From a virus (lineage: Duplodnaviria; Caudoviricetes): a DNA stretch of 64,000 nucleotides. Positions 163 through 17,867 of this stretch are shown here, in pieces. Numbering within the stretch: the stretch's first letter is position 1; each line of letters starts with the position of its first letter. A program made the translations under genes and the position numbers. The notes below the pieces were generated by a model. The model saw only the letters and a program-made list of their open reading frames with translations. It was not told where the DNA came from and did not search any database. The DNA lies in the IMG/VR virus record IMGVR_UViG_3300018089_000001, positions 32,001 to 96,000 of that record; one strand, given 5' to 3'.

Positions 163-188
163 CCGCCGGCGCCTCTCCGCCTCGATCC

Positions 189-763: not shown

Positions 764-1119
764 CCCTCCTCCGACTGGAGGTTAGGGGGGAGGAGGAGCG
801 GGACGAGCCGGACGAGCCCCTCCCTGTCCCCGACAGTCAGCGGGACGTGCTCGCTCGTGTTCGTCACCTTGACCACGATCTCCTCACCGGCCGGGATGAC
901 CTGCCGGACCTCGATGTGGGCCGCCGAGGGCAGCGCGATGAGGTTGCAGTTCGCGGCCACGCCCAGCCGGACGTCCATCGACACCTTGGGCGGCAGGGAC
1001 CGCTCGAACGGGTTCCGTCCGATGAACCAGTGGGGGGTCTGGGTGGGCCGGAGCCCGTCTCCGATCAGGTGCCAGACCACGCGGGGGCCGGTGGTCTCCT
1101 TTTCAGCATTCTTCGCCAT
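760..1119 (-). CDS. Degenerate trimeric dUTPase-fold protein
   Basis: SLPP..DVRLGV, GEEIVVKVTN..VPLTVGDREGLVRLV resemble dUTPase strands (GEI.V.L.N...I..GDRIAQLV); catalytic motifs absent. Confidence 0.45.
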   Translation of the reverse strand: MAKNAEKETTGPRVVWHLIGDGLRPTQTPHWFIGRNPFERSLPPKVSMDVRLGVAANCNLIALPSAAHIEVRQVIPAGEEIVVKVTNTSEHVPLTVGDREGLVRLVPLLLPPNLQSEEG

Positions 1120-2275
1120 CTGTTCCTTGTCGTTCAGTTGCCTCAGCAGTCGCCGCAGGAACCTCTCCTGCCACCGCATCTCCTACCAGCCCCTCGAGCA
1201 CGTCCACGAAGTTGCGGACGTCCATGTGAGACAAGATATGCGCGGCCTCCTCACGGATGACCCTCCTCCGGATCGGGGACACGTTTCGTAGCTCGGTGGC
1301 CTGCTCGAGGAGGCCCTGGGCGTCCCCGACCACCCGCTGCGCGTACTGGCCGACGCCGAGGTGGCACGCCAGCCCGATCGGAACGCTCCCGAACAAAACG
1401 GCCTCCCACGGCCGGGGCGTGATGAAGCCGCTCTCATAGTACGACTGCTTCGCGAGGAGTGGGACGGCGGCCACCCGGGAGTACGCCTCACGGAAACCCC
1501 GCACGCCGATCCGACCTGCGAAGGTGACGCCCGGCCAACGCCGCCGGACCTCCTCCGCGGGCTCCCACTTGCCCCAGAACTTGACCCGATGGGTCCTCGG
1601 AGGGGCGATCGGGCCGATCCAGCGGTCGATCGTCTCGTCCCGCTCGTAGCGGGACCCGATGTAGCCGAGGTGGTGGGACGGCTTCCGTTCGTCGATGTCG
1701 TGTTGGAGCAGGTCCGCGGTGACGAAGGGCGGCTCGACGCGAGTGGCCCCGATCAACGATCGTGACGCTGTCTCGATGACCTTGACTCCATGCCAGAATG
1801 CGAGGGACTCTTCGTCCAACTTGTGATCGAGATCCCAGACCACGACGGGGACGCCCAGATCGAGATAGTGGCGGAGGACCTCGACCTGCCGGTCGAGGTC
1901 GGACTGGAAGTTGGGCTTTCCGCGGTCCTCCGGAGTGTTTCGACCCGGGATGGACCACCGCCACTCGATCAGGACCATGTCCAGCTCGGGGAACCTGACG
2001 TCCGAGAGTCTCGTCCAGCCCCGGACGAGCATCCGCTCGTAGGAGAGGAGCCGCTTCCGGCCGCTGAAGGCTGAGAAGAGGTCCCCGCCCAACCGGGTGG
2101 CGGCCGGGGCGTCGAGGTTCGGGCCCAGGGGGATGAGCTTGTGACCCCGTCGCTCACACTCGTGCTCGATGGACCACGAGTACGTCGCATTGCCGTCGGG
2201 GGTCGACAACTCCGACCCGTCGGGAGCCATCTTGACGTCGCCGAGGAAGCCCCGGAAGAGGTAGCCGATCCTCAC
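1103..2275 (-). CDS. GT-B glycosyltransferase, T4 beta-glucosyltransferase-like (putative DNA glycosyltransferase)
   Basis: YIGSRYER, KFWGKW and YSRVAAVPLLAKQSYYESGFITPRPWE parallel the BGT C-domain (..Y.DNFITLRVWE); GTG start overlaps upstream stop. Confidence 0.7.
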   Translation of the reverse strand: MRIGYLFRGFLGDVKMAPDGSELSTPDGNATYSWSIEHECERRGHKLIPLGPNLDAPAATRLGGDLFSAFSGRKRLLSYERMLVRGWTRLSDVRFPELDMVLIEWRWSIPGRNTPEDRGKPNFQSDLDRQVEVLRHYLDLGVPVVVWDLDHKLDEESLAFWHGVKVIETASRSLIGATRVEPPFVTADLLQHDIDERKPSHHLGYIGSRYERDETIDRWIGPIAPPRTHRVKFWGKWEPAEEVRRRWPGVTFAGRIGVRGFREAYSRVAAVPLLAKQSYYESGFITPRPWEAVLFGSVPIGLACHLGVGQYAQRVVGDAQGLLEQATELRNVSPIRRRVIREEAAHILSHMDVRNFVDVLEGLVGDAVAGEVPAATAEATERQGTDGEEC

Positions 2276-2541
2276 TGATCGTACACGCCCTCCGCGAGGG
2301 CCCCGTTGAGGTACTCGAGGTGCCTCCGGATCCACCGCATGAACGTCAGGGCCTTGTCGCTCGGAAGAAACTCGCCCCCGCCGGCATCGGAGACGGGAAT
2401 CGGGAAGTCGAAGGAGTGGATGGAGCAGGTGCCACCCTCGGTGGTCCCCTCCCAGTCGATCCTGTACCACAGGTTACCGTCCTGGTACCGCTGGAACCAG
2501 GCGATGCTCTTCGCGAGTTGAACGATCGTCGGCAGCTTCAC
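2272..2541 (-). CDS. Hypothetical protein
   Basis: MKLPTIVQLAKSIAWFQRYQDGNLWY...FMRWIRRHLE; coupled at both ends. Confidence 0.65.
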   Translation of the reverse strand: MKLPTIVQLAKSIAWFQRYQDGNLWYRIDWEGTTEGGTCSIHSFDFPIPVSDAGGGEFLPSDKALTFMRWIRRHLEYLNGALAEGVYDQ

Positions 2542-3152
2542 AGGCCCATCTCCCTCTCGCCCAGCAGGGCGAGGCAACGCTTCGTGTCGAAGTCCTCCCG
2601 TTCCCTCCCGCTCAGGTGGAGGGACTGGGAGGTGTCGTAGCGGACGACACGGCAGTCCGTCCAACACATGAACATGTCGTACATCCGCTTCACGTCCCAG
2701 TACCGCTCCGGCGGGACCAGCTCGTCCTGTTCCTGGGGCTGGACGGAGGCGTAGAGGTACAGGATCACCGTCCCGAGGTTCACGTGGGCGTGGTCGATCT
2801 CGTCCAGGAGCCGCACGTCGGTCTCCCGCTCGAACACGGCCGAGTACACCCACTCGCAGGGGTAGGCCCGGTCGCTGATGAAGCGATATCCGGTCTGCTG
2901 GAGAAAGTGCGTGAGCGTGTAGTCGAAGGCCAGCGACGAGCGGCCGCCCTGTCGAAAGATCTGCTTCTCGGTCGGGCACTTGAACACCGGGATCCCGGTG
3001 AGCTCCGACATGCGTTTGGCGATCGTGGTCTTCCCGACTCCGTCGGGGCCGACGACGAGGACCGACGGACCCTTTCGGATGACTCTGGGCTTGAGAGCCC
3101 ACTCGGTGTCGGTCTCATCGGCAGTGCTGTCGATGACTATCGTGTCCTGCAT
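2538..3152 (-). CDS. Deoxynucleoside monophosphate (thymidylate-type) kinase
   Basis: Walker A GPDGVGKTT followed by ISDR..PCEWVYS, typical of the TMK fold. Confidence 0.75.
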   Translation of the reverse strand: MQDTIVIDSTADETDTEWALKPRVIRKGPSVLVVGPDGVGKTTIAKRMSELTGIPVFKCPTEKQIFRQGGRSSLAFDYTLTHFLQQTGYRFISDRAYPCEWVYSAVFERETDVRLLDEIDHAHVNLGTVILYLYASVQPQEQDELVPPERYWDVKRMYDMFMCWTDCRVVRYDTSQSLHLSGREREDFDTKRCLALLGEREMGL

Positions 3153-3319
3153 CAGTCCTCCATCGGATCACGGGGTTCCAGCTCACGCTCCACGGCGCGC
3201 TCGACGGCCCACTCGAACTGCTCGTTGATGTGTTGGGCGAGCCATGCAAGGGTCTTCCTCGTGGACCCGTCGACCCCGGCATCGGTCATCACCCTCGCGA
3301 GTTTCTCGAGGTCTATCAC
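3152..3319 (-). CDS. Small hypothetical protein
   Basis: C-terminal part of ORF 3152..3478; GTG start overlaps upstream stop. Confidence 0.5.
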   Translation of the reverse strand: MIDLEKLARVMTDAGVDGSTRKTLAWLAQHINEQFEWAVERAVERELEPRDPMED

Positions 3320-3738
3320 TTGCGTCTCCTTCGCATGCGGCGGAGGGTCCGCTGGGCCCTCTCGTTCATGATAACACCGTCGAGCCTGGAGGCCTCCTCG
3401 AGGGTCAGGAGCTCGCCGCACCTGCGGAGCTCTTCCTCGGTCACGACGAGGTACGTCCAGCCGTTCGCGGCGGCCCACGCCTCCGCGGCGCGCCTCTTCG
3501 CCGTGTTGTTGCGGTTCCCGGCGCGGGAGCTCGGCTTGATCTCGACCAGCGTCCTCGTCTGGGGGAGCGTGAGGTCCACCACGTAGGTCCTCCTCCCCTC
3601 TTTCCCGTAGGGTATCCTCGTCGCCTCATAGAGCATCGTGGACCCCAGGATTAGGCCGTCGGCCTCCAGGTTACGGATGACCGCCAGCTCGAGCAGGCTC
3701 CTGAACCGCGTCCCGCGATAGGTTCCGGAGAAGGCCAT
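3316..3738 (-). CDS. TnsA-like / T4 gp4-like PD-(D/E)xK endonuclease
   Basis: FRSLLE...YE..RIPY...YVVDL...LVEIKP motif. Confidence 0.7.
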   Translation of the reverse strand: MAFSGTYRGTRFRSLLELAVIRNLEADGLILGSTMLYEATRIPYGKEGRRTYVVDLTLPQTRTLVEIKPSSRAGNRNNTAKRRAAEAWAAANGWTYLVVTEEELRRCGELLTLEEASRLDGVIMNERAQRTLRRMRRRRK

Positions 3739-4094
3739 CAGCCCCCGTACGCGGTCTCAAACGCCCGATCGACCTGCCTCTGGACCTCTGGCGTCACGTC
3801 TGGTTCGGTGAACAGCGACTCCGTCGCGACCCGGGTGTCAGAGACCGGCAGCTTATAGCAGCTCAACATCACGCCCAGCTCATTCCGTTCCACGGAGAAC
3901 GAGGCGGAGGACGCCATCTCCAGGAAGGACTCGAACGGGACGATGATGCAGACCGGTTTCCCGAAATGGAGGTGCTCGATGACCCGCTTCCGCATGGCCT
4001 CGCACGGCTCCCGATACCTGTCACCGACGTACGAGGCGGGCGCGAGCGGGTCCCCTTCAAACCTGATGAAGAAATACGAGTCGATGGTCTTCAC
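3738..4094 (-). CDS. Hypothetical protein
   Basis: ORF track; overlaps with neighbours. Confidence 0.55.
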   Translation of the reverse strand: MKTIDSYFFIRFEGDPLAPASYVGDRYREPCEAMRKRVIEHLHFGKPVCIIVPFESFLEMASSASFSVERNELGVMLSCYKLPVSDTRVATESLFTEPDVTPEVQRQVDRAFETAYGG

Positions 4095-5182
4095 GGGACC
4101 TCGAAGAGTAGGGACCAGCACTCCATCGCGTCACCGAGTCGGCTCCAGTACGCCGCGTGCTCGCCGCCGAACCCCCGGACCGCGGAGGCGACCCTCCGGT
4201 AGCATTCGGTGGGTGTCCGGAGGCCATCGAGTCGCACCGCGTCGATCCTCTCCCAAAACGTTTCGTTCTGTTCGATCCCGTTGGCCTCCTTGCGGAGGTT
4301 CTTGAACGGGTCGGACGCCCGGTCGTGATGGATGTGCGGGGTACCTGTGCTGACGACCCACCCGAGGTGGTCGCAGATCCTCTTTTGGATGATGCCGCAC
4401 CATATGTCCCCCATCCTATCGAACGGAAGGGGCTCGGTGAAGCCCTCGAAGCCCCTCCGCACCGACTTGATCTGCCCCATGAGCAGGTGGTAGCTCAGCG
4501 GGATCGTCTCGCGCCGCCACATCACGTTCATCCCGCAGAAGGGGAAGAATGCCCCGTGCGGGACGATGCGGTTGTCATGGGTGTACGTCTCCGGGACCGG
4601 ATCGACGAGCTGCTGGGGGGCGTCGTAGTCGAGGACGCCCTGCCAGATCCCGTGGTTGACGTGGACCGGCCGCGAGCCGAGGTTCCGGTACGGGACCCCG
4701 CGCGGCCGGACGCTGTTCAGCGTGTTGAACCACCTCGTGCGTTGCAACATCCCCCTATGCAGGAGATCGAGCTGCTCGTAGCCCTTCGCGGGGTAACAGT
4801 CGTCGTCAAGGGTCTGCAGGAAACCGTACCCCTGGCTCCAGGCCCACCAGTAGCCGAAGCTCCTGACGGTGTCCGAGCGGCGGGGAATGATCCACGACCA
4901 AGCGTGCATGTCGATGTCCTCCCAGCAGAAGTGCTGGGCGACGTCGGTCACGGACGGCGTGAAGGTCTTCCGCGGATTGTCCTCGACGAGGATGAGGTCG
5001 ACCCGATCGAGCATCCCGGTGGGTCGCCACTCCGCGACGAACCGCGAGAAGCTCTCCCTCCTGATCGAGGGGACGACGAGGGCCACGCGGTCTCTGTTAG
5101 GACCTGTTAGGCCCTCGTCGTCATCGTCAGGGCCTAGATTCTCTGAGAGATCCTGAGGGAGGAGGGGGTAGTCAGCTTCCAT
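4091..5182 (-). CDS. RGP / UDP-arabinopyranose mutase family protein (GT75)
   Basis: TLDDDC, RGVPY, HGIW..VLDYDAPQQLV, FPFCGMN, DIWCG..KRICDHLG..V.TG.P.I.H.RASDPFKNLRKE match plant reversibly glycosylated polypeptide motifs along the whole length. Confidence 0.85.
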   Translation of the reverse strand: MEADYPLLPQDLSENLGPDDDDEGLTGPNRDRVALVVPSIRRESFSRFVAEWRPTGMLDRVDLILVEDNPRKTFTPSVTDVAQHFCWEDIDMHAWSWIIPRRSDTVRSFGYWWAWSQGYGFLQTLDDDCYPAKGYEQLDLLHRGMLQRTRWFNTLNSVRPRGVPYRNLGSRPVHVNHGIWQGVLDYDAPQQLVDPVPETYTHDNRIVPHGAFFPFCGMNVMWRRETIPLSYHLLMGQIKSVRRGFEGFTEPLPFDRMGDIWCGIIQKRICDHLGWVVSTGTPHIHHDRASDPFKNLRKEANGIEQNETFWERIDAVRLDGLRTPTECYRRVASAVRGFGGEHAAYWSRLGDAMECWSLLFEVP

Positions 5183-5546
5183 TTCGAATCCTCCAGAGCT
5201 CGATTGCCTGGCAGCAGTGGCCCTCCATGCCGAACATGTCGGAGAGGCCGCTGGCCGATCTTATCACGTCGAGCAGCCACGGGTTCTCCCTGATCCACTC
5301 GTCCCAGAGCCAGGAGTATAGCGCGGCGCACTCCGCCTGGTTCGTCACGCCGACTCCGGCGACCCGCTTCGCCTTGGCGGCCCTCCAGTCGAGACCAGTC
5401 GAGCCGTCCTCGAAGACCTTGTACGCCTGGTACGCCTCCTCAATGGAGGCCCCTCCGAGGCACGACGGCCTCGCGTAGAACGCCGAGAGCCGGGTGTCAC
5501 CCCGGCTACTACACTCGAGGTACGGTGGGTCGCCGACGCGGATCAA
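5172..5546 (-). CDS. NADAR/YbiA-like protein (tentative)
   Basis: LSAFY...SIEEAYQAYKVF resembles NADAR FSNF...E..YQA.KF. Confidence 0.4.
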   Translation of the reverse strand: MIRVGDPPYLECSSRGDTRLSAFYARPSCLGGASIEEAYQAYKVFEDGSTGLDWRAAKAKRVAGVGVTNQAECAALYSWLWDEWIRENPWLLDVIRSASGLSDMFGMEGHCCQAIELWRIRNGS

Positions 5547-5662
5547 TCGTCCCCCGAGAGCAGGTCGGCGATCATCGCGACCGGAGACATCACGAAGATG
5601 AACGCCCAGAACAGGACGTGGATGCACCACGGCTCACCACGGAGGTCACCGAAGTCTGCCAT
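5543..5662 (-). CDS. Small membrane protein (39 aa)
   Basis: Manual translation MADFGDLRGEPWCIHVLFWAFIFVMSPVAMIADLLSGDD; overlaps at both ends. Confidence 0.45.
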   Translation of the reverse strand: MADFGDLRGEPWCIHVLFWAFIFVMSPVAMIADLLSGDD

Positions 5663-5877
5663 CAGCAGATCCTCCTGTCACCGGCGGACGGACGGGGGAT
5701 GGGCTTCAGGATGTCCGCCAGGTTCGGCCTGTCGTGGGTCTGTTTCTGGAAGACGAGGGCGAGGTGGTCGTTGACCATGCGGATCTGCGCCGGACTCAGC
5801 GTGATCGCGGTATCGTCGCCGACCATCGACAGCTCGAAGAACCCCTGGAGCCAGTAGCAGAACTGCTCGGGCGTCAC
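5662..5877 (-). CDS. Small phage protein (MTPEQFCYWLQGFFE type)
   Basis: N-terminal motif common in phage hypothetical proteins. Confidence 0.65.
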   Translation of the reverse strand: MTPEQFCYWLQGFFELSMVGDDTAITLSPAQIRMVNDHLALVFQKQTHDRPNLADILKPIPRPSAGDRRIC

Positions 5878-6305
5878 ATGCCCTCCCGGTGGACGAAGTT
5901 ACCGCAGTTCCCGTTGGAGCACTCGACGCGGACGAACCCGACGTACGCGTCCGAGCCGCAGAGCGGGCACCCGTTCCTGTGCGGCCAGAAGTGGTCGTCG
6001 TGGGCCCTCGCCATGACCTCGGTCTCAGGATCGAGTCCGTCCGGGTCCTTGACCGGATATGGGACGGCCGCGATGGGTAGATCGATCTCGACGCAGGGGT
6101 TCACGCCCCCCCACCTCCTGTCGAAATCGAAGAGCAGCGAGGTCGGCAGCGGCATCGGCTGGATGCGCGGCTTAGTGATCTCGAAGATGCCGTCGGTGTA
6201 CGACATGACCTTGGTCCTCTGGTACTGAAGAAAGGGGAGCCTCTTCAGCTCCTCAGCGTACTCGTTCCACAGGGCCTTTACCTTGGCCCACTCGTCTTCG
6301 CCCAT
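5874..6305 (-). CDS. Hypothetical protein with C-terminal Zn ribbon
   Basis: CPLCG...ECSNGNC. Confidence 0.6.
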   Translation of the reverse strand: MGEDEWAKVKALWNEYAEELKRLPFLQYQRTKVMSYTDGIFEITKPRIQPMPLPTSLLFDFDRRWGGVNPCVEIDLPIAAVPYPVKDPDGLDPETEVMARAHDDHFWPHRNGCPLCGSDAYVGFVRVECSNGNCGNFVHREGM

Positions 6306-6315
6306 CCGAGTCCTT

Positions 6316-7863
6316 TCAGATTTCGATGCTGTCGACCGGAATGAAGTAGCTCGCGGCCTGCCTGGCCGAGTGGGCCCACCCCGGCTTCCCGACCACGAAG
6401 CCGTTGGGGTCCTCGAGCTTACGGTGCAGCACCGTGATGTACACGTCGCCCTGGCGGACGGCCGCCCGGACGTGCTCCCAGATGCCAGCGAACGCCGGCG
6501 CCTCGAACTCCATGCCGTCCCGGTCCGTGAGACGGAGCCAGGCCATGGGCCGCCCGTTCTTCTGGGGCCTCTCCTTGATCGACTTGACCAGGAGCGGGGC
6601 TATCAGGACCTCACGGTCCTCGTCCTCGACGAAGGCCGCGTAGCCCGGCTCGCAGAGACCCTCGCCGACGAGGCGGTCGACCTTCGCGTGCCGGTCGTTG
6701 ATGGAGAACGGGGTGCCGCGGAGGTTGAACCCGAGCAGCTCCCGCTCCCGCTCCATCAGCTCGATCGGGTCGTCCTTCGGGCCCCAGATCGCCTCGAGGA
6801 CGGGGGCCACGGCGTCCCGGTTCTTCTTATGGGAGAGCCGCTTGTCGGACCTGAAGGCCTCGTAGCGGAGGCGGAGGGTCGCCACGGACGTCCCGGGGAC
6901 CAGGTCGGTGAAGGCGCCCACGGCCATGAGGGCCTCGACGGACGTCTTCGTCGCCCCCGAGTCGAGCAGGAAGTCGGCGAACGAGGCGTACGGCTGACGG
7001 GCCGCGATCTTCTCGACCGCGGACGGTCCGATCCCCTTCACCGCCGTGAAGGGAAGCCGGATCCCGTTCCCTTCGATCCGAGGGGAGCGGCCCGACAGGT
7101 TCACGTCGACGGGCTTGATCTCGAAGCCCTGGCGGCGGATGTCGTTCACGTACGTCTGCAGGTCGGCCGCCTGGCCCGCGGAGAGCAGCGCGGCGAAGAA
7201 CTCCATCGGATAGTACGTCCGGAGGTACGCGGTCTGCATCGTGACCATGCCGTACGCCTTGGCGTGGGCCCGGTTGAAGCCGTAGGAGCCCCACTTGCCG
7301 AAGGCCTCCCAGAGGTCCTCGGCGGCGGAGCGGGCCATCCCGTTCCCCACGGCGCCCTCGACGACCTTGCCACGTAGCTCGGCGTCCTCCTGCCGGAGGA
7401 ACTCGTCGGACTTGCTCTTGTCCTTCTTGAGGAAGTGCTTGCGGACCCGGTTGGTGTCCTTCCAGGACATCCCGCAGAGCTTCCGGCAGGTCTCCAGGAG
7501 GTGCTCCTGGTAGACGAAGCAGCCGTAGGTGTCCCTCAGGACCTCCTCGAGCAGCGGGTGGTCGTACGTGACGTCCTCAAGGCCGTTCTTCCGCCTCGCG
7601 TACATCTGGTCCATGCCTGAGCCGAGTGGACCCGGACGGTAGAGGGCGCAGACGGCCGCGACGTCGTCGAAGCAGGTCGGCTTGACCTGCTGGAACAGCT
7701 TCATCATGCCCTGGGAGGTGACCGAGAAGATCCCCGTCATGTTCCCCTCCCAGAAGACCGTCCGCATGACCTCCATCGAGTTGAGGTCCATGGTCTTCGG
7801 GTCGATCTCATTGACGACGTCCTGGTAAGAACGTGGGACCCGCTTGATCGATTTGATCCGCAT
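6316..7863 (-). CDS. dnaE: DNA polymerase III alpha subunit, C-terminal half (split gene)
   Basis: ALYRPGPL, TYGCFVYQE, YGFNRAHAKAY, YYPMEFFAALL, VKGIG and C-terminal OB fold. Confidence 0.92.
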   Translation of the reverse strand: MRIKSIKRVPRSYQDVVNEIDPKTMDLNSMEVMRTVFWEGNMTGIFSVTSQGMMKLFQQVKPTCFDDVAAVCALYRPGPLGSGMDQMYARRKNGLEDVTYDHPLLEEVLRDTYGCFVYQEHLLETCRKLCGMSWKDTNRVRKHFLKKDKSKSDEFLRQEDAELRGKVVEGAVGNGMARSAAEDLWEAFGKWGSYGFNRAHAKAYGMVTMQTAYLRTYYPMEFFAALLSAGQAADLQTYVNDIRRQGFEIKPVDVNLSGRSPRIEGNGIRLPFTAVKGIGPSAVEKIAARQPYASFADFLLDSGATKTSVEALMAVGAFTDLVPGTSVATLRLRYEAFRSDKRLSHKKNRDAVAPVLEAIWGPKDDPIELMERERELLGFNLRGTPFSINDRHAKVDRLVGEGLCEPGYAAFVEDEDREVLIAPLLVKSIKERPQKNGRPMAWLRLTDRDGMEFEAPAFAGIWEHVRAAVRQGDVYITVLHRKLEDPNGFVVGKPGWAHSARQAASYFIPVDSIEI

Positions 7864-8099
7864 CAGTGACCCAGAGAGAGTGGGTCGAGGCCCAGTGGAA
7901 TCTCCGGCAGCCCCAACGATCTGAGGCTCTCATTGGCGGTGAGGTGCTCAGCGTAAACCTCCCGGTCTATCTCGGAATCCGGATGGAACCCGTGGCCTTG
8001 GTAGCCGCAACCGAAACACCTGAATAGGCAGACGCCGTCGAGAAAACCCCTCCGGTGCTCCGCGGAGCACCGGGGACAGACAAAGTGGATGTCACTCAT
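7863..8099 (-). CDS. Small Zn-ribbon protein between the dnaE halves
   Basis: CPRC...CFGCG; ATGA overlap-type coupling upstream, TGATG with dnaE-C. Confidence 0.6.
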   Translation of the reverse strand: MSDIHFVCPRCSAEHRRGFLDGVCLFRCFGCGYQGHGFHPDSEIDREVYAEHLTANESLRSLGLPEIPLGLDPLSLGH

Positions 8100-8862: not shown

Positions 8863-10852
8863 CTTCAATGAGCTGGTCGACTCTGATCGATCCTCGCTGT
8901 GTTTGCACTCGCTCATATGACAAAAACTTTCGGATTGAACCGTCCTCCATCTCCAGTTCGATCAATGGATGAGTTGCGGCGATCAGTTTGCAGGCTTGAG
9001 AGATGACCTCGAGCGAGGCAAGCGAAAGTATGTCAAACTTCACCAGCCCCATGTTGGAGGCCGACTTGTTCACGATCCCGTCGGTGAACGAGGCCTGGAC
9101 GACCCCCTTGGAGCGGAACACCGACGTCTCGGAGGGCAGGTCGTCGCCGATGACCACGCCCGAGGCGTGGCGCCCGACGTGGTGCTCCCGCCCGTACAGG
9201 CTCCGGACCGCACGCTCCAGCTGGGGGTACTGACGCATGAACGAGTTGAACGTCGGACTGAGGCGGTAGATGTCGTCGAGCTTGATGACGATGGCCGAGC
9301 GGGTCACCCCCTCGTCCTCGCTGTACAGGGCCCGCATCTCCCGCTCGATCTGCGCGTTGACGCGGTTGCAGAGGTTGTGGTCGATGTCGTGGACCCGGCA
9401 GAGGTCCTTCAGGAGGCCCTTGATCTGGTTGGTCCCGTACGTGCTGATGCAGGCGACGTTGTCCTCGCCGAAGTCGCGGCGGAGGATGTCCTTGACCCGG
9501 TCCACGTCCTGGAAGTCGAGGTCGATGTCCGGGGTCTCGACGCGGTCGATGTTGATGAACCGCTCGAACATCAGGTTGTGCTCGATCGGGTCGATGTTCG
9601 TGATCCCGGTGAGGTAGCAGATCAGGCTGCCGGCCGCCGATCCGCGGCCGGGACCGATGAGCATCTCCTTCCGCGCCGCGTCGCAGATGTTCCGGACGAC
9701 GAGGAAGTAGTTGGCGAGCCCCTTCTCCCGGATGACGCCCAGCTCGTAGCTCAGACGCTGGACGTACCGGTCGTCCCGCTCCAGCCCGCGGGACCTCAGT
9801 CCCACGGCCGCGGACCGCATGAGCTCCCTGAACGTGTCCGCGTACGGCAACGACGGGAGCCGCATCCGCGTGTCGGGCTCGAACTGCTCGACCAAGGAGT
9901 CCGCCATGAGCGTGTTATCGAACGCCTGGGCAAGGACGTCCTCCGGAACCTCGGGGTTGTTCAGGCGGAAGCTCTCCCACAGTTCGTCGGCCGACTTGAC
10001 GAAGAGGGAGCGCACGTCGAACCTATAGTCGGGCGGCAGGTTCCCGAGAGTGAGGCCCCCAGCCTTACCCCGATGCGTCAGGAGGAGGTGGAGGATCTGC
10101 TGCGACTGCCAGTCCGCGGGGTCCACATAGTGGCTGTCTTGCGTGACAAGGAGTGGGATCTTCGTCTCGTCGTGGATCTTAATGAGGGCGGAATTCAGTT
10201 CGGCTTGGTACGGCGCCGCGTTGGTCTGCAGCTCAAGGAAAAACCGACCCTGAAAGATCTCGGAGTACTCTTGAGCTAGCTTGACGACTTCATCCCATTC
10301 GCACTCGCCGCGTTTGAACAGCGAATAGCGAGCGCTGATGACACCGCCCATGCATGCTGATGAGGCGACTAGGCCCCTGCTGAGCTCAGCGAGCATCTCC
10401 TTGTCAAGGCGCGGCTTTTGGAAGTAGCCTTCCTTGTGGGCTCGGTACTGGAGCCGATAAAGGTTCGCCAGACCCTCCCTGCTTTGAGCCACCAAGACGA
10501 GATGGCCCTTCCGATAGAGGACCTTCCGCTTCGTCTTATCGAGGGCAGCGCGGTCAAGGTCGAACTCGACGTCCTCGACCGCGGCTTTCTTCTCAAGTGC
10601 CAGCTGCTCCTTGAGGGCTCGCCAGTCCTTGAGGCTATCGATGACGTAGCTCTCCATTCCGAGGAGAGCCCTCACGCCCTGCTTCTTGGCCTCGAGGAAA
10701 GTCCGTGCGTGCGAGTGGCAATGCCCGTGATTCGTGATCGCGAAGGACTTGAGTCCCTTGTCCTTCGCCGCCTTGACAAGCTCTTCAGGAGAACAGACGC
10801 CATCCTGAAAGCTGAAGGCATCGTGCGTATGCAGACTTGCCATCATCCTCAT
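8807..10852 (-). CDS. dnaE: DNA polymerase III alpha subunit, N-terminal half (PHP + palm) with Hint-like tail
   Basis: HTH..FS..DG, AITNHG, GPGRGSAAGSL, FERF, PDIDLDF, GRHASG, GLVKFDIL. Confidence 0.93.
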   Translation of the reverse strand: MRMMASLHTHDAFSFQDGVCSPEELVKAAKDKGLKSFAITNHGHCHSHARTFLEAKKQGVRALLGMESYVIDSLKDWRALKEQLALEKKAAVEDVEFDLDRAALDKTKRKVLYRKGHLVLVAQSREGLANLYRLQYRAHKEGYFQKPRLDKEMLAELSRGLVASSACMGGVISARYSLFKRGECEWDEVVKLAQEYSEIFQGRFFLELQTNAAPYQAELNSALIKIHDETKIPLLVTQDSHYVDPADWQSQQILHLLLTHRGKAGGLTLGNLPPDYRFDVRSLFVKSADELWESFRLNNPEVPEDVLAQAFDNTLMADSLVEQFEPDTRMRLPSLPYADTFRELMRSAAVGLRSRGLERDDRYVQRLSYELGVIREKGLANYFLVVRNICDAARKEMLIGPGRGSAAGSLICYLTGITNIDPIEHNLMFERFINIDRVETPDIDLDFQDVDRVKDILRRDFGEDNVACISTYGTNQIKGLLKDLCRVHDIDHNLCNRVNAQIEREMRALYSEDEGVTRSAIVIKLDDIYRLSPTFNSFMRQYPQLERAVRSLYGREHHVGRHASGVVIGDDLPSETSVFRSKGVVQASFTDGIVNKSASNMGLVKFDILSLASLEVISQACKLIAATHPLIELEMEDGSIRKFLSYERVQTQRGSIRVDQLIEDDEILESSDIRAGGSANR

Positions 10853-10862
10853 CGATGCAACC

Positions 10863-11006
10863 TCATTTCCACCACGGAGGGAGTAGATACCGACAACGGG
10901 CCCACTTCGCCATGCATGACCTATCGCAAAAAATCGTCTTTCCGCGCATCGGCCTTCGCACGATTCCGCCGCATGTCCAACAGAGGGACCGCCAGCCTCT
11001 GCTCAC
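10863..11006 (-). CDS. Small C4 zinc-finger protein (possible homing-endonuclease N-terminal remnant)
   Basis: Manual translation MSRGWRSLCWTCGGIVRRPMRGKTIFCDRSCMAKWARCRYLLPPWWK. Confidence 0.4.
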   Translation of the reverse strand: MSRGWRSLCWTCGGIVRRPMRGKTIFCDRSCMAKWARCRYLLPPWWK

Positions 11007-11458
11007 GGAACGATCTTCGCCACGTTCCATCCTACGGTGTAGGAGTACATCTCGATCGTCGGCTTGCCGTCGATCCGCGTCACGGCCCGCCGACGCTTCT
11101 GATCGATGAACTCCGTCCCGTCCTCCCGGCAGTACACGAACATCACGTAGTCCCGGGACTCCCTATAGACGTCGTCGCAGTAGTACCGGTGGGCCACCCG
11201 CTCCTTGCTCCGTGAGACCCAGACACCGTCCATGCGGCGCCCAGTGATCGCCTCCCTGAGGACGTACAACCCCCGTGCCCCCTCGACCCTCTCGAAATGA
11301 CGTCGGAAGATGTGCCCGAGGTTCATGTGGTAGTGGTGGTCGGATCGGGGGATGCCCGTGGCCATGCGGTACCTCGCGGCCGCCTCGCCCCAGCTGATCA
11401 CGCCGCCCGGCTGGAGACGAGCGAACCGCAGGATGCTAGCCGTCGCGCCGCGTTTCAT
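11003..11458 (-). CDS. Hypothetical protein (possible winged-helix N-terminus)
   Basis: ORF track; apparently leaderless behind an extended -10. Confidence 0.55.
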   Translation of the reverse strand: MKRGATASILRFARLQPGGVISWGEAAARYRMATGIPRSDHHYHMNLGHIFRRHFERVEGARGLYVLREAITGRRMDGVWVSRSKERVAHRYYCDDVYRESRDYVMFVYCREDGTEFIDQKRRRAVTRIDGKPTIEMYSYTVGWNVAKIVP

Positions 11459-11464
11459 CAGGAA

Positions 11465-11473
11465 ATCCTACCA
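11465..11473 (-). promoter_or_regulatory. Extended -10 promoter (TGGTAGGAT), ATG 6 nt downstream
   Basis: TGnTAnnAT match; same geometry at 18147. Confidence 0.4.
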
Positions 11474-11486
11474 CGTGATGGGGTTG

Positions 11487-11681
11487 TCAGTTGAGCGACG
11501 AGTCGTCCCGACGGGCCTCAGCGAGAGCGAGAGCCCTCCTCCTGATCCAGGACAGGAAGGAGACCTGCAGGTGCGCGGGGATCTCGTCAGCGAACCTACT
11601 GAGGTCAGAGAGCGTGGGGGCGGCGGCCATCATCCGAAAGTACTTCTCGATCAGCTCCGCCAGGCTCACTTGGCCCTCCAC
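11487..11681 (-). CDS. Hypothetical protein
   Basis: ORF track. Confidence 0.45.
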   Translation of the reverse strand: MEGQVSLAELIEKYFRMMAAAPTLSDLSRFADEIPAHLQVSFLSWIRRRALALAEARRDDSSLN

Positions 11682-12124
11682 TTGAGGAACGTGGGCTCAC
11701 GCTTGAGTTTCCGGGAGTACTCGATGGCGTCCCAGGTCCCCCCGTCCCTGACGCCGTCCCAGACGGCGGCGAGTCGGTCGCTGTTGTCGACCATCCATCG
11801 GTTCCTGATCGAATACACGGAGACCGAGTACCTGTCGACGTCGGACGTCACCCTCACGTCCGCGGCCTTCTCGAGACGAGCGAGGTACTGCTCACGGAGG
11901 GTCGGTGGCCACTCCAAGGCGTGACCGACCCACGGGACTGCCGCGGTGACCGGTATCCCGAGGTCCACGGCGATGTCGAAGGCCATCGAGTCGACCCCCT
12001 GGGCCATCCCCGAGATGACCCCGTCGGGCCGCTCGGTCATGAGGAACTCCTTGATGGCTATCCATGCCCCGGCGAGGTCGTCGCCGAGACGCTCGGAACG
12101 GTGTCCCGCGAAAGCGATTATCAT
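11666..12124 (-). CDS. SLOG-family (YspA/DUF1273-like) protein
   Basis: IAFAGHR, ISGMAQGVD, RNRWMVDNSD...VWDG...GGT. Confidence 0.8.
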   Translation of the reverse strand: MIIAFAGHRSERLGDDLAGAWIAIKEFLMTERPDGVISGMAQGVDSMAFDIAVDLGIPVTAAVPWVGHALEWPPTLREQYLARLEKAADVRVTSDVDRYSVSVYSIRNRWMVDNSDRLAAVWDGVRDGGTWDAIEYSRKLKREPTFLKWRAK

Positions 12125-12600
12125 TCGATCTCCCCGAACTCCCGCTGGATGCAGTCCAGGACCTCATCCAGGGGAATCCTTGATTTGATTGGTGGCTCGC
12201 TGGTATAATACCTCTCCTGACGGCCGTTCCGGTATCCGGAGCGTTCGACCGTGTGGGCGAGCACCGTCTCCCAGCGTTGGAACCAGCAGCCGAGCGTCTC
12301 GTCCTCATTCATCGCCATCAGCCACCTGGCCTGGCTCTTATTGAACTCGAAGGTCGACACGGAGACGCTGTCGGGGTACTTGGCGGACGGGGTCTTAACC
12401 TCGATCGTCAGGAGCGGGGCCTCGTCGGGCCTCGAGAAGAGGAGGTCACCCTTTATGCCGTTGGCTCGGGAGTGCCTCGGACCCCTCCGGACCGTGATCC
12501 GTGAGCCGCGCTCTGCCAACCTCCGTCGAATGATCTCCAGGGCCCGGTCGTTGCCTTCCTCGCCGACCTTGGCCTCCCATGAGTTTGGGTCGTAGCTCAC
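12121..12600 (-). CDS. PD-(D/E)xK nuclease-like protein
   Basis: GDLLF...TIEVKT. Confidence 0.5.
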   Translation of the reverse strand: MSYDPNSWEAKVGEEGNDRALEIIRRRLAERGSRITVRRGPRHSRANGIKGDLLFSRPDEAPLLTIEVKTPSAKYPDSVSVSTFEFNKSQARWLMAMNEDETLGCWFQRWETVLAHTVERSGYRNGRQERYYTSEPPIKSRIPLDEVLDCIQREFGEIE

Positions 12601-12634
12601 GCAACCCCGTCCTTGCCCAGCGGAGACAGCCCGA

Positions 12635-13024
12635 TCATTCGTTCACCACAACCCTTCCGTTCCTCAGGATCACCGTGCGGTCCGTCAGCGGGTCGTACTC
12701 ATACCAGGTCCTGGCCCACGGCCCCCGCAGCGTGAATACCCATGTGGTACCGAGGCTAACCACTCGATGGAAAGTGTCGCGTCTCGTGATGATAGGAAAC
12801 AGGCTCGGCACGTGGACCTCGATCCGTCCATCGAGGTGCTCCTCGATCAGGGTTCCCCACAGGACCCACGAGACGCTGTTGAAGGCGTGGGAGTGGTACT
12901 CGTCACGGCTGCCGTTCGCGAAACGCAGCAAGGCCACGCTGAACAGCCTCTTGACCTCAGCGAGCCAGTAGCCGACGACCGTCGACTTCGGGCCCCCGTC
13001 CTTGGCCCTGTGGAAGAACTTCAC
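12635..13024 (-). CDS. Cupin-fold protein
   Basis: YHSHAF...G.L.EEH...FHRV metal-binding cupin pattern. Confidence 0.6.
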   Translation of the reverse strand: MKFFHRAKDGGPKSTVVGYWLAEVKRLFSVALLRFANGSRDEYHSHAFNSVSWVLWGTLIEEHLDGRIEVHVPSLFPIITRRDTFHRVVSLGTTWVFTLRGPWARTWYEYDPLTDRTVILRNGRVVVNE

Positions 13025-13025
13025 A

Positions 13026-13256
13026 TCACACCGTGAATTCCGCGGCCTCGATCTCGATATGCAGCCATCCGGTCGCGACGATGTGTAGCTTTCCGTCAGC
13101 AGTCCTCAAGCGATGCGTCCCGCTTGGCCTGGCGAGGAAATGCGTCACGTCCGCGATGCAAACCTTCTCCCCTCCAGGGAAGGAGTACACCCGTGACTTC
13201 TCTGGCGGATCCAGCCTGGTCAACTCCACAACAGCAGCTTCGGGAAAATCAGTCAT
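13026..13256 (-). CDS. Small phage protein
   Basis: EKSRVYSFPGG...SGTHRL..ADGK.H....GW; TGATG coupling. Confidence 0.6.
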   Translation of the reverse strand: MTDFPEAAVVELTRLDPPEKSRVYSFPGGEKVCIADVTHFLARPSGTHRLRTADGKLHIVATGWLHIEIEAAEFTV

Positions 13257-13621
13257 CAGTATCCCTCCTGTAGCCTCCGCCGCACGACCGCGTTCTTCCG
13301 TCGAAACTCCTCGTAGAGCGCGTCGGGCGTCATCCCACTGATCACGCAGAGTTCCAGGAAGAACGCGAAGGCGTCGCCGATCTCCTCCCGGTAATGCTCG
13401 AGGTCCACCTCGGCGGCGTCGCTGAGGCGGTGCATCTTGTTCTTCAGCTCCACGGTGGCCTCGAAGAGCTCCGCGACGCAGTTGAAGACGCACTCCTTGA
13501 CGAAACGCTGGCCCGGCTTCGTACCGAGGTCAACGGGGTACTCGGGGAAGCGGTCGTGCTCCACGAGCATGTCCATGTACTCACGCTGGAGGGCGAAGGC
13601 CCGGTCGAGCTTGTCACTCAT
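13256..13621 (-). CDS. All-alpha dCTP/dUTP pyrophosphatase (T4 gp56 / dimeric dUTPase-like)
   Basis: AELFE...EEIGDAFAFF...LYEEF..KN....R...GY. Confidence 0.75.
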   Translation of the reverse strand: MSDKLDRAFALQREYMDMLVEHDRFPEYPVDLGTKPGQRFVKECVFNCVAELFEATVELKNKMHRLSDAAEVDLEHYREEIGDAFAFFLELCVISGMTPDALYEEFRRKNAVVRRRLQEGY

Positions 13622-13797
13622 CGGTCGAAGTAGTCCGTCCTCATCGGCTCGATCGTCGCCCGCGCGACGAGATCATCGCCCGCGCCGTGGAATGTCACCA
13701 TGACCCCGTGGTTCGGCTTGATGTGTCCAGCCTTGGTCAGGTACTCCCTGACCGCCTGGCTGATCTCCGGCTCGCTCAGTTCGACTGTCACCTTCAT
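13618..13797 (-). CDS. Small hypothetical protein
   Basis: MKVTVELSEPEISQAVREYL. Confidence 0.55.
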   Translation of the reverse strand: MKVTVELSEPEISQAVREYLTKAGHIKPNHGVMVTFHGAGDDLVARATIEPMRTDYFDR

Positions 13798-13798
13798 C

Positions 13799-14374
13799 TC
13801 ACCCCTTCGTCCAGCGTCTCTGGAGCACAGTCGAGAGACGTGGCTCCGCGCATCCCGTCCCATAGACCCAGCGCAGCCTCTTGCCGGACACGGTCACGTC
13901 ACGAATGCCGTATGAGCCGAGTTCGACGCGAGTGTCCTTCTCGACAATGTCGTAACCGTGCTCGGTGCGAAGCACGCGGATGTCAGGAAGGAACGTCTCG
14001 AAGAACGTGCACGCCTCGTGCACCATGTGCATCAGGTGACCCTCGTCCACGTCGTGGGCGTTGATCAACTCCGCCTTGAGGAAGTAGATGCGCCGGAGCT
14101 CGTCCAGCCTCTGCTCCCACCGGAAGCACGGCGTGACGCACACTGCCCGCTTCAGCGGCTGCCCGTCCAGCATCATCTGGATGAACGACTGCTCGCCGGA
14201 GGCCACGAGATTGCCGAAATGCCCCGCCGGGGTGGCGATTCGTAGGTCCGTGGCCCCCGGGGGCTTCGTGGCGTCGTACGCGGGCGGGTCCACGTACCAC
14301 GGGGCGTCCTGGACGTACACGTACCCCCGCTTCTGATAGAACTCGATGGCGCTCGCGATGTGTCGGTAGTCCAT
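13799..14374 (-). CDS. Stand-alone class II aminoacyl-tRNA-synthetase-like catalytic domain (SerRS-like)
   Basis: VASGEQSF, TPCFRWE (motif 2), F.K.EL, YDI...VELGS, GTGCAEPR (motif 3); no tRNA-binding domain. Confidence 0.72.
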   Translation of the reverse strand: MDYRHIASAIEFYQKRGYVYVQDAPWYVDPPAYDATKPPGATDLRIATPAGHFGNLVASGEQSFIQMMLDGQPLKRAVCVTPCFRWEQRLDELRRIYFLKAELINAHDVDEGHLMHMVHEACTFFETFLPDIRVLRTEHGYDIVEKDTRVELGSYGIRDVTVSGKRLRWVYGTGCAEPRLSTVLQRRWTKG

Positions 14375-14375
14375 G

Positions 14376-14780
14376 TCACTCCTCCTTGGGGACCCGGTGG
14401 CCCACCTTGAAGGCCCGCTTCGTGATCGCGGCCATTGACAGGAGATCGGACAACTCGATGCTCGGGTGATGGCGGTCGAGGTACCCCTCGATCGCTCCGA
14501 TGAGGTCCGCGAGCTCTAGGAGGGCCATCAGGGAACACCGCTGGGCCAGGGCGTCCTTGAACTCCGCCAGCTCCTCCTCGATCTTCGAGACCTCGCCGTA
14601 CTCGCCCTGCGGTATCCAGGCGATGTGGTATCCGATCGGGGATGGCGGTGTCTCGAGCTGCTGGATCGTCTTGAACGCCGTACACATGCAGGACGGAGCG
14701 GAGAGAGGCTTGGCGGTGCAGGCCCCAGTCCCCATGAAATGGAGGATGCTGACGTGTCCGCACCAGCACTTCGGCTCCAT
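14376..14780 (-). CDS. MazG-like NTP pyrophosphatase with N-terminal Cys motif
   Basis: KIEEELAEF.DA.......ELADL. Confidence 0.6.
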   Translation of the reverse strand: MEPKCWCGHVSILHFMGTGACTAKPLSAPSCMCTAFKTIQQLETPPSPIGYHIAWIPQGEYGEVSKIEEELAEFKDALAQRCSLMALLELADLIGAIEGYLDRHHPSIELSDLLSMAAITKRAFKVGHRVPKEE

Positions 14781-14782
14781 GG

Positions 14783-15202
14783 TCAGGCCTCCGCCTTTCC
14801 GAACATGTCCGGGAGCTCGTACCGGTCGTATGGGCGGCCACTGAAGCCGTGGGCCACGACCAGGCGTCCCAGTGACGAGTTGAGGGAGTAGAGCTCACAC
14901 CACGGTTGGACGGAGAGCAGGGCCTTCCGCACGGAGCGGGCGTGCTCCTCCCCCGTGACCGTGACTGCGACCAGCCGCGGTCGGCGCTGGGAGATGCTCG
15001 CGTACGTCCGTCTAGTCGGCTCGGCACCGTCGACGACGACGACGCTCTCCGGAACGACGAGCAGAAGCATCTCAGACAGCGTCAGCGGACGGAACCAGGC
15101 GGCCGGGTAGGTCCGCGACTGGTCGCGATTGGCGATGACGACGACACGCTCGTAAGAGCGGACGTCCAGGACGAGTTCGATGTTAGGGCGATTGCTGCTC
15201 AC
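14783..15202 (-). CDS. Hypothetical protein
   Basis: ORF track. Confidence 0.55.
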   Translation of the reverse strand: MSSNRPNIELVLDVRSYERVVVIANRDQSRTYPAAWFRPLTLSEMLLLVVPESVVVVDGAEPTRRTYASISQRRPRLVAVTVTGEEHARSVRKALLSVQPWCELYSLNSSLGRLVVAHGFSGRPYDRYELPDMFGKAEA

Positions 15203-16196
15203 GCTTGTCCTTCTCGATCTTCTCGATGACGCGCCTGTCGCGGTGGTCGACCAGCATGGAGACCATCCATTCCAGGGTCGTCTGGTCCGCGTCCCTCTCG
15301 GGTGAGGAGAAGGCGGGGGGCCAGGAAACGTTCAAAGGGGCCAGGGGGTTGCCGACTGACTGCCGACACGCCGGCTCGTACTGTGTCGCCAGCCACTCCA
15401 TCTGGTCCCACGTCACGGGGAGCATCGGAGCGGGCCAGGGGTGTTCCTCATTGGCCACCTCCCCCGCCATCCCCCAGTGTGTGTCATAGAGGTGGAGGGA
15501 GCCCGCCGTGTGATGGTAGGACCCCACGTCGTCCACCGGCACGCCGCGGCGACGCAGTTCCAGCATGAAGAGCTCCTGCAAGCAGGTGAAGCTGAAGACG
15601 TCGTAGGGCAGACCCCAGACGACGTCGTTGCTCCTCATCACCACGTGCATGTGGAGGTGGCGGTCCCTGATCAGGAGCTGTATCGAGAGGGTGCAGGGGA
15701 CGTCCTTGGAGCCCTGGACGACGGTCCGCCGGAGGTCCTCGGGCTCATTGATGTGCATGACGGCGCGGCGGCTGGCCGGATCGGCCGTCAGCTCGGCGAG
15801 GACCTGATCGAACTGGCCCTCCCCCTCCGTGAAGGAGGGGGAACCCGGTGGACCGAACCAGCGACCCCTGAACAGGCGGTTGCCGTAGGCGGAGTTGATG
15901 GTCAGCCCATCGTCGGAGAACTGGGCCATGCGCTTGTTGTAGTAGCGCATCGTCTCCAGGTCCGTGTCGCCCCGGAGGTACCAGCACAGCTCCCCGACGG
16001 CGAAGCCGTAGTTGACGGCCCGAGCGGGACTCGTGATGAGCCTGTTCCGGGGATCCGTCAGGGTGAACGTCGGAGCCACGAGCTCCCGGATCAGCTTGCC
16101 GCGGGGAGCGGACTCGAAGTCGAAGGACCACCGCAGGTCACCCATCAGGTCGCGGTGGATCTCCTCCAACGAGGAGCGGGTGATGTTGAGGGTCAT
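15183..16196 (-). CDS. Thymidylate-synthase-fold dCMP hydroxymethylase-like protein
   Basis: SRRA, DVPCT, MRSNDVVWGLPYD (Asp at the specificity position, as in T4 gp42), GSLHLY. Confidence 0.8.
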   Translation of the reverse strand: MTLNITRSSLEEIHRDLMGDLRWSFDFESAPRGKLIRELVAPTFTLTDPRNRLITSPARAVNYGFAVGELCWYLRGDTDLETMRYYNKRMAQFSDDGLTINSAYGNRLFRGRWFGPPGSPSFTEGEGQFDQVLAELTADPASRRAVMHINEPEDLRRTVVQGSKDVPCTLSIQLLIRDRHLHMHVVMRSNDVVWGLPYDVFSFTCLQELFMLELRRRGVPVDDVGSYHHTAGSLHLYDTHWGMAGEVANEEHPWPAPMLPVTWDQMEWLATQYEPACRQSVGNPLAPLNVSWPPAFSSPERDADQTTLEWMVSMLVDHRDRRVIEKIEKDKREQQSP

Positions 16197-17864: not shown

Positions 17865-17867
17865 GGA

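Follow-up and report, generated by a model that had tools for sequence, protein, structure and literature searches.

The presence of a candidate GT75 sugar mutase beside a candidate DNA glycosyltransferase, unlike the situation in any characterised phage, points to an undescribed DNA modification in an uncultured soil-type phage. We analysed a window of 64,000 nucleotides, bases 32001-96000 of the 185,486-bp IMG/VR virus record IMGVR_UViG_3300018089_000001 (estimated to be 91% complete), with a G+C content of about 65%. The replication and nucleotide-metabolism region of this phage, which also holds a split DnaE polymerase, encodes on the minus strand five proteins that could together make DNA containing 5-hydroxymethyl-deoxycytidine (hm-dC) and glycosylate it with a nucleoside diphosphate (NDP)-furanose from the phage's own mutase, a reading to which we give about an even chance. 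The identities of the genes, the folds of their products, the signature residues and the conserved linkage are direct observations. A preliminary description of the sequence had claimed the five open reading frames (ORFs), all of which are present, and had interpreted them as a pathway of 5-hydroxymethylcytosine (hmC) synthesis, transfer by an enzyme like the beta-glucosyltransferase (BGT) of T4, and supply of the sugar by a mutase; this interpretation came through all the computational tests able to refute it. The five genes are the following:

1103..2275, minus strand: orphan GT-B glycosyltransferase of 390 aa, candidate DNA hmC glycosyltransferase (from its model, residues and context)
2538..3152, minus strand: P-loop nucleotide kinase of 204 aa, candidate hm-dCMP kinase (from PHROG, Pfam and RB69 gp45 matches)
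4091..5182, minus strand: candidate GT75/RGP NDP-sugar pyranose-furanose mutase of 363 aa (from Pfam RGP, its model and residues)
13256..13621, minus strand: all-alpha NTP pyrophosphohydrolase of 121 aa, candidate dCTPase (from PHROG 12184 and synteny)
15183..16196, minus strand: ThyA-fold protein of 337 aa, candidate dCMP hydroxymethylase (from Pfam, a MilA match and signature residues)

Membership of the GT75 family is established for the protein at 4091-5182, which matches Pfam RGP (PF03214) with an E-value of 8.8e-36 (124.2 bits, cut-off 23.8) over profile positions 2-335 of 342, a result reproduced by a six-frame search of the phage's own genome. A profile of 28 phage GT75 homologs matches the rice enzyme OsUAM2 (8cid) over its full length (3.8e-25) and MtdL (1.9e-22). 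The latter is the GT75 GDP-L-galactose/fucose pyranose-furanose mutase of actinomycetes (PMC9937993), and it was through this study that we identified the PDB entries named 'Transglycosylse' as MtdL. The structural model, made of a GT-A core and the helical domain of the family (with loop 156-201 at low confidence), superimposes on OsUAM2 with Z 26.9 (278 residues, root-mean-square deviation (rmsd) 3.1) and on MtdL with Z 26.8; the next fold is a generic GT-A at Z 14.2. Residues D104, R107, D126-D128, R161, D185, R256, D259, H286 and R288 are invariant in the 28 phage homologs and correspond in HMMER alignments to MtdL D87, R90, DDD, R159, D195, R257, D260, H287 and R289. The structures of MtdL assign to these residues the DDD metal motif, the autoglycosylated arginine (OsUAM1 R158, MtdL R159) and the catalytic Asp195, Asp260, Arg257 and His287 (PMC9937993). 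The RGP/GT75 assignment of the preliminary description is thus borne out by the Pfam match, the fold (Z about 27) and the retention of all catalytic residues, and mutase activity is predicted. GT75 enzymes are of the GT-A fold and use several NDP-sugars to autoglycosylate a conserved arginine (PMC9937993), and GT-A DNA glycosyltransferases do occur in phages (bioRxiv 10.1101/2023.12.21.572611), which would suit a module of two glycosyltransferases in which GT75 itself transfers the sugar, via the Arg-sugar intermediate, to DNA, a nucleotide or a protein. We regard this as very improbable, since the equivalents of D195, D260 and R257, on which mutase chemistry depends, are all invariant, and since the GT75 literature consulted describes autoglycosylation of the enzyme's own arginine and mutase activity, with no other acceptor (PMC9937993).

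The mutase had first been described as a plant-type UDP-sugar enzyme. This label is not warranted: by alignment and modelling, the phage GT75 proteins appear as a third branch, as far from plant UAM as from MtdL, the GDP-sugar mutase, and their base- and sugar-site residues are mixed. Pro38 (at MtdL T13) and Gly217 (at S228) are plant-like, and Ser103-Asp104 (at MtdL S86-D87) are MtdL-like. Given this mixture, arabinofuranose (Araf) is one among several candidate sugars, and the candidate donors are UDP-D-galactofuranose (UDP-D-Galf), UDP-L-Araf and GDP-L-fucofuranose or GDP-L-galactofuranose (GDP-L-Fucf/L-Galf). The proposal that the furanose is Araf, or possibly Galf, therefore stands in that both stay candidates, but GDP-L-Fucf/L-Galf join them and Araf is not singled out. 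UDP-galactose is widespread in bacteria. This, together with the ability of plant GT75 enzymes to turn the pyranose form, UDP-D-Galp, into UDP-D-Galf (PMC9937993), gives Galf a plausibility no lower than that of L-Araf, and GDP-L-Fucf/L-Galf is possible too. An approach that we abandoned was to infer the donor from other genes of the genome: these include an NDP-sugar dehydrogenase and three epimerases or dehydratases of the short-chain dehydrogenase/reductase (SDR) type, none of them a clear UDP-xylose synthase. A feeder route from UDP-glucose through UDP-glucuronic acid and UDP-xylose to UDP-L-arabinopyranose (UDP-L-Arap) is neither shown nor excluded by the gene content.

The GT-B protein matches no Pfam family at E-values up to 0.01 (the model of T4 BGT included) and no PHROG, and a phmmer search of PDB sequences returned only a chance alpha-galactosidase match (E 0.97). 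It has 291 homologs, all unannotated and many of them on contigs of 100-215 kb. We kept the start chosen in the preliminary description, a GTG at 2275, which shares bases with the stop codon of a small ORF upstream. An AlphaFold model built from 37 homologs (predicted local distance difference test score of 90) has the GT-B fold and superimposes on T4 BGT with Z 21.3 (rmsd 3.5 Å over 303 residues, chain 1-351 of 351) and on T4 AGT with Z of about 20. Both scores are tied with those of PimA (Z 21.9), BshA and other GT4 enzymes, so the fold alone is not indicative of DNA as the acceptor. We aligned the window protein with 22 homologs (29-70% identical to it) and T4 BGT using MAFFT, and checked the invariance of residues in 19 sequences of the family. 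E104, R106, R212, Y279, T286, R288 and E291 are invariant in these 19 members and S208 is nearly so (Asn in two). Taken in sequence order, E104, R106, S208, R212, Y279, T286, R288 and E291 align with BGT D100, R102, S189, R195, Y261, T267, R269 and E272, and a FITxRxWE block is common to the family and T4 BGT. We take BGT D100 (mutated in PDB 1nzd) to be the catalytic base and S189, R195, Y261, R269 and E272 to bind UDP; the putative catalytic base of the phage protein is Glu (E104) where BGT has Asp. Comparison of the two by hhalign (E 0.0017, probability 15.7%) covers only the C-terminal 134 columns, in the same register as the MAFFT alignment. Of 18 viral records with a member of the GT-B family, 17 also have a thymidylate synthase (TS) homolog of the Asp type discussed below and one, a 12%-complete fragment, does not; the GT-B gene directly adjoins the TS gene in the GT75-lacking phages L015, L016, L018, L019 and L020, which include complete 45-kb genomes. 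From the fold, the invariant residues aligned with BGT and the co-occurrence with the TS homolog, we read the protein as a putative DNA hmC glycosyltransferase working like BGT, as had been proposed for 1103-2275, without assigning it to the BGT family (GT63).

Conserved linkage ties this transferase to the mutase. GT75, kinase and GT-B are contiguous in this order in 12 IMG/VR contigs, in the window and in a 197-kb NCBI contig; within the clade the order is held by 13/13 GT75-carrying contigs, with 0.5-2 kb between GT75 and GT-B and, usually, TS, NTP pyrophosphatase and DnaE in this order upstream. The cassette-bearing contigs span 34-65% G+C, which indicates that the linkage has survived wide divergence and changes of host. 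Scanning IMG/VR in reverse, with the GT75 profile, recovered exactly the same 12 viral contigs. The joint occurrence of GT75, a BGT-like transferase and an Asp-type TS, which the preliminary description had made a test of its interpretation, is thus found both for GT-B with TS (17/18 records) and for the three-gene cassette (13/13 contigs). Among 50,697 phage records, megablast of window positions 1-20000 and tblastn of GT-B gave no match, and tblastn of GT75 gave a single one, in the uncultured 595-kb LR756511.1 (42%). Neither GT75 nor GT-B is carried by any cultured phage among these records.

The distribution of GT75 within the GT-B family bears on the nature of the donor. GT75 accompanies every GT-B that is at least 40% identical to the window protein and is absent at 9/9 loci with 38% identity or less, and this restriction to one GT-B subclade fits a switch of donor there. 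The GT-B residues specific to the GT75-linked subclade are only W290 and R341, too few for assigning a donor. The GT75-lacking relatives have the same GT-B family beside the TS gene, evidently without a mutase. They would accord with an explanation in which hmC is glycosylated with an ordinary host pyranose (UDP-glucose, as in T4) and the GT75 product serves as a second DNA sugar or enters a non-DNA glycan on the virion or the host surface. So would the many other glycosyltransferases of the genome (GT4-conflict, GT9 and a 1050-aa protein with several such domains) and its sugar-nucleotide modules, and poly-glycosylated bases built by several glycosyltransferases are known (PMC13326640). We nevertheless hold this explanation to be unlikely: GT75 is never apart from GT-B in the clade and stays within 0.5-2 kb of it in all 13 contigs, it tracks a distinct GT-B subclade, which suggests that the donor changed there, and the other glycosyltransferase genes are about 100 kb away from the cassette.

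A further alternative is that GT75 and GT-B form an auxiliary glycan module, acting on the cell envelope, the capsule or a virion protein, and merely located in the replication region. Three observations are in its favour. First, the sole mention of a phage GT75 that we found in the literature lists it as a soil-phage carbon or cell-membrane auxiliary metabolic gene (AMG) (PMC12016548). Second, the neighbours of the GT75 gene of LR756511.1 (204400-209100) encode two sulfotransferases, a methyltransferase and an F5/8-type-C carbohydrate-binding protein, and TS, kinase and GT-B are all missing from this neighbourhood; such a context suggests a furanose glycan that is sulfated or methylated and has no relation to the TS-linked cassette. 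Third, the fold of GT-B is tied with those of GT4 enzymes whose substrates are lipids or small molecules. On the other side stand the presence of GT-B with an Asp-type TS homolog in all records except the fragment, often in adjacent genes, the nucleotide kinase embedded in the cassette, and the conservation of BGT-specific residues in GT-B. Together these make an auxiliary glycan module improbable in our view.

The TS homolog bears on which base is made. Its ATG at 16196 overlaps the TGA of the upstream gene; it matches Pfam Thymidylat_synt (PF00303) at 2.2e-21, and its closest solved relative is the CMP 5-hydroxymethylase MilA (8.6e-39). Marker rules have been formulated for this fold, in the numbering of E. 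coli ThyA: D169N denotes a 5-hydroxy-dCMP synthase, N177D a cytosine substrate and L143D/E hydroxymethylation (PMC13326640). We aligned the window protein with T4 gp42, RB69 gp48 and the 17 TS homologs found with BLAST in related viral records. Its motifs DVPCT, MRSND and PYD correspond to L143D, a retained D169 and N177D; the catalytic Cys is present and the pattern is that of T4 gp42. The TS-fold enzyme had been described as having Asp at the specificity position, and the alignment places this Asp at the site of E. coli N177. All 17 related homologs have Asp at 169 and the same pattern (L143D, but E in one), whereas RB69 gp48, the control in the same alignment, reads RSQN, with Asn at the diagnostic 169 site. 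MilA owes its preference for ribo-CMP to K133 and A176, which are Arg and Ser in deoxy-specific enzymes (PMC5175136); the TS homolog has Arg (DPASRRAV) and Ser (MRSND) there and is of the deoxyribose type. The genome encodes a separate ThyX, and no second ThyA-fold gene was found in it, so the synthesis of dTMP would be covered separately. We thus predict that the enzyme makes 5-hm-dCMP.

A 2026 study found that the TS homologs of RB69 and DLP3 make 5-hydroxy-dCMP rather than hm-dCMP (PMC13326640), and the enzyme of the window could in principle do the same as RB69 gp48 and DLP3 gp80, in which case the sugar would be ether-linked to the C5 oxygen. In line with this, MilA is also the best structural match of the 5-hydroxy-dCMP synthase of DLP3 (PMC13326640), and the furanosyl (Araf, Gal) decorations known to date sit on 5-hydroxycytosine (5hoC). 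The D169 test led us to reject the 5hoC reading, to which we leave very little probability: D169N is absent, with Asp in the window enzyme and its 17 relatives where RB69 gp48 has Asn. The preliminary description had allowed for both bases; the signature residues fit hm-dC, which is favoured, and the retained D169 tells against hydroxy-dC.

Two further enzymes would prepare the nucleotide for incorporation. The protein at 13256-13621 matches the nucleotide pyrophosphohydrolases of PHROG 12184 (1e-12), and its gene lies beside that of the TS homolog in nine related loci. Its likeness to Pfam dUTPase_2 (1.1e-3, 19.7 bits) is below the 22.9 cut-off, its pairwise match to T4 gp56 (6e-4) is weak and limited to the C-terminal 42 residues, and phmmer gave no match among PDB sequences. 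We read the protein as an all-alpha NTP pyrophosphatase, for which the earlier designation as a gp56-like dCTPase is plausible, with weak support in the alignments. The dNMP kinase proposed at 2538-3152 is indeed a P-loop kinase, with matches to the thymidylate kinase PHROG (6.4e-10) and to Pfam AAA/P-loop families. It is 30% identical (E 6e-7) to RB69 gp45, the kinase of the cytosine-arabinosylation cluster of that phage, and it is the middle gene of the cassette, between GT75 and GT-B, in 13/13 GT75-carrying contigs.

From these elements we infer what each enzyme does, that DNA is the acceptor and that GT-B takes its donor from the mutase. The resulting scheme would comprise 1) a lowering of dCTP by the NTP pyrophosphatase, which would yield dCMP; 2) conversion of dCMP into 5-hm-dCMP by the ThyA-fold enzyme; 3) phosphorylation to hm-dCTP by the P-loop kinase and the host NDP kinase; 4) incorporation of hm-dCTP by the DnaE-type polymerase of the phage; 5) conversion of an NDP-pyranose into an NDP-furanose by GT75, with Mn2+ or Mg2+ and a covalent Arg161-sugar intermediate; and 6) transfer of the furanose onto the 5-CH2OH of hmC in DNA by the BGT-like GT-B, probably an inverting reaction in which E104 acts as general base. 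The base would thus be replaced before replication and glycosylated after it, as in the T4 scheme with a different donor route. Such furanosyl-hmC DNA would resist restriction enzymes, Cas nucleases, type IV enzymes specific for hmC or glucosyl-hmC, and glycosylases. Extended to the clade, the proposal is that a widespread group of uncultured phages of about 100-210 kb, with hosts of 34-65% G+C, carries an undescribed 5-(furanosyl-oxymethyl)cytosine, the donor of which comes from the phage GT75 branch and is used in BGT-like transfer; we put the chance of this a little short of even.

Several points weigh against the proposed pathway. The phage is uncultured and the case is computational. The fold of GT-B is indistinguishable from those of GT4 enzymes acting on lipids and small molecules, and its sequence reaches no Pfam model, that of T4 BGT included, with the hhalign probability to BGT standing at the low value given above. 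The assignment of a dCTPase is weak, with a sub-cut-off Pfam score, a 42-residue match to gp56 and no match in the PDB. Not every plant GT75 protein has catalytic activity (PMC9937993). Besides GT-B, five or more glycosyltransferases are encoded in the genome, along with three further sugar-nucleotide modules, so the furanose could feed a different transferase. Finally, the context of the gene in LR756511.1 means that a phage GT75 is not intrinsically a marker of DNA modification.

A close functional parallel is the hmC pathway of T4 (gp56, gp42, gp1 and beta-glucosyltransferase), which has the same logic and enzyme classes. T4 and the window phage have in common the active-site signature of gp42, the GT-B fold and the aligned catalytic and UDP-binding residues, and b-gt lies beside gene 42 in T4 as GT-B lies beside the TS gene in the GT75-lacking relatives. 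However, the GT-B of the window is too diverged for the BGT Pfam model, its kinase is Tmk-like rather than gp1-like, its replicase is of the DnaE type, and the GT75 mutase beside the transferase implies a donor that is not drawn straight from the host pool. A furanose also features in RB69, DLP3 and HY126, where arabinofuranose is placed on a modified cytosine and where kinase, glycosyltransferase and TS homolog are clustered as they are here, with a homologous kinase (PMC13326640). In these phages the base is 5hoC, and UDP-D-Araf is made from ribulose-5-phosphate by an arabinose-5-phosphate (Ara5P) isomerase, a kinase/uridylyltransferase and a phosphatase, with no mutase and no GT75 (PMC13326640).

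Supply of a DNA glycosyltransferase by a phage mutase has itself been put forward: in 2026 the Glf (UDP-galactopyranose mutase) of Rhizobium phage RL38J1 was proposed to provide Galf for DNA, in a Pootjesviridae cluster that likewise contains a TS homolog and a kinase (PMC13326640). The two systems differ in that Glf is FAD-dependent and of the UDP-galactopyranose mutase family, unrelated to the metal-dependent GT75, and in that the RL38J1 base is 5hoC (D169N), whereas the signature in the window is that of hydroxymethylation. We found no Glf-type mutase in the genome of the window phage. Plant UAM/RGP enzymes (acting on UDP-L-Arap as well as UDP-D-Galp) and MtdL/Hyg20 (GDP-L-galactopyranose and GDP-L-fucopyranose) share the Pfam family, the fold (Z about 27) and the catalytic residues of the phage protein (PMC9937993), but they serve the synthesis of cell walls or antibiotics, whereas the phage enzyme would serve to modify DNA. 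TS-linked GT-B transferases and sugar-nucleotide genes in phage DNA-modification clusters are already established (bioRxiv 10.1101/2023.12.21.572611). We found no literature report that ties GT75 to DNA modification or an arabinopyranose mutase to a bacteriophage. The earlier statement that this donor route is absent from characterised phages is therefore upheld for GT75 but not for the concept, in view of the published parallel in RL38J1.

Glycosylated cytosines decide the survival of phages in the face of restriction and CRISPR nucleases, as well as of type IV enzymes and of newly found glycosylases for hmC and glucosyl-hmC, and each new sugar is both a new class of escape and a new target for defence systems. 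If the pathway is as proposed, it would give GT75 its first physiological role in nucleic-acid modification and would constitute a third independent phage route to furanose donors, after the Ara5P and Glf routes, in addition to its base chemistry. With L-Araf or L-Fucf/L-Galf as the sugar, DNA would for the first time be reported to contain an L-furanose. On the proposed pathway, the 'GT75 carbon-cycling AMGs' of soil viromes would be anti-restriction genes of DNA modification, and their ecological annotation would have to be corrected. The three-gene cassette and the TS homolog are compact and could become a source of enzymes with which to produce NDP-furanoses and tag hmC in DNA.

Further ORFs lie between the genes of the window cassette:

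2272..2541, minus strand: small ORF of 89 aa between kinase and GT-B (sequence reading)
3316-3738, minus strand: TnsA-like endonuclease gene (Pfam Tn7_TnsA-like_N 4.1e-7, PHROG endonuclease 1.1e-15)
3738-4121, minus strand: ORF without assigned function, inserted in the cassette beside the TnsA-like gene

The 89-aa ORF has a homolog only in the closest relative, L003, and locus L047 has a 60-aa gene at the same place. The ORFs at 3316-4121 split the cassette between kinase and GT75. Homologs of the TnsA-like endonuclease are present in 2 of 21 related loci and those of the 3738-4121 ORF in none, which is why we regard the pair as probably a mobile (or homing) insertion outside the pathway. On the other side of GT75, a 152-aa ORF (5172-5630, minus strand) overlaps the start of this gene; it matches PHROG 9995 (1.2e-29) and, below the cut-off, the DarT1-associated NADAR family (E 0.001), and is not conserved in relatives.

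Other sugar-nucleotide genes lie outside the window, and the coordinates that follow are those of the record. At 13100-15900, a gene similar to glucose-1-phosphate cytidylyltransferase (1.6e-58, short of the equivalog cut-off) is found about 0.9 kb from an SDR resembling 4,6-dehydratases and epimerases, possibly a module for a CDP-deoxyhexose (CDP-glucose-like). An ADP-heptose-like cluster at 133500-141200 contains an HldE-like kinase/adenylyltransferase (a PfkB sugar kinase and a cytidylyl/adenylyltransferase-like protein), the NDP-sugar dehydrogenase, a methyltransferase, a GT1-like protein, a GT9 (heptosyltransferase-like) and a heptose-6-epimerase-like SDR; in the 96%-complete relative G006, dehydrogenase and SDR are about 4 kb apart. 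At 147300-154200, the 1050-aa GT9/GT4/GT2 protein, a GalE-like 4-epimerase (best PDB match 5e-51), a 441-aa 'GT4-conflict' glycosyltransferase and a PD-(D/E)XK nuclease stand side by side. These modules could extend a DNA glycan, which is conceivable since heptosyl-hmC is known (bioRxiv 10.1101/2023.12.21.572611), or serve other targets, and one of them might be the real consumer of the furanose. The GT75-lacking G017 (IMGVR_UViG_3300027896_002454, 10250-19003) encodes a homolog of the NDP-sugar dehydrogenase with 37% identity. The gene is separated from the TS homolog by about 2.5 kb and from GT-B by about 7 kb, and three SDR genes are elsewhere on the contig; the same transferase family may here be served by another donor, which could be a uronic acid.

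The polymerase near the cassette is encoded in two minus-strand genes, 6316-7863 and 8807-10852, which divide DnaE into a PHP and NTPase half and a finger and HhH half. They are about 0.9 kb apart, with small ORFs between them, and the protein is in one piece in several relatives (1170 aa in L047). The same minus-strand block includes, in coordinate order, a YpsA/SLOG-family protein (11666-12124), a match to the PHROG 'cysteine dioxygenase' (12635-13024), a match to the PHROG 'histidyl tRNA synthetase' (13799-14374, 6.5e-32) and a DHH phosphoesterase (16489-17415).

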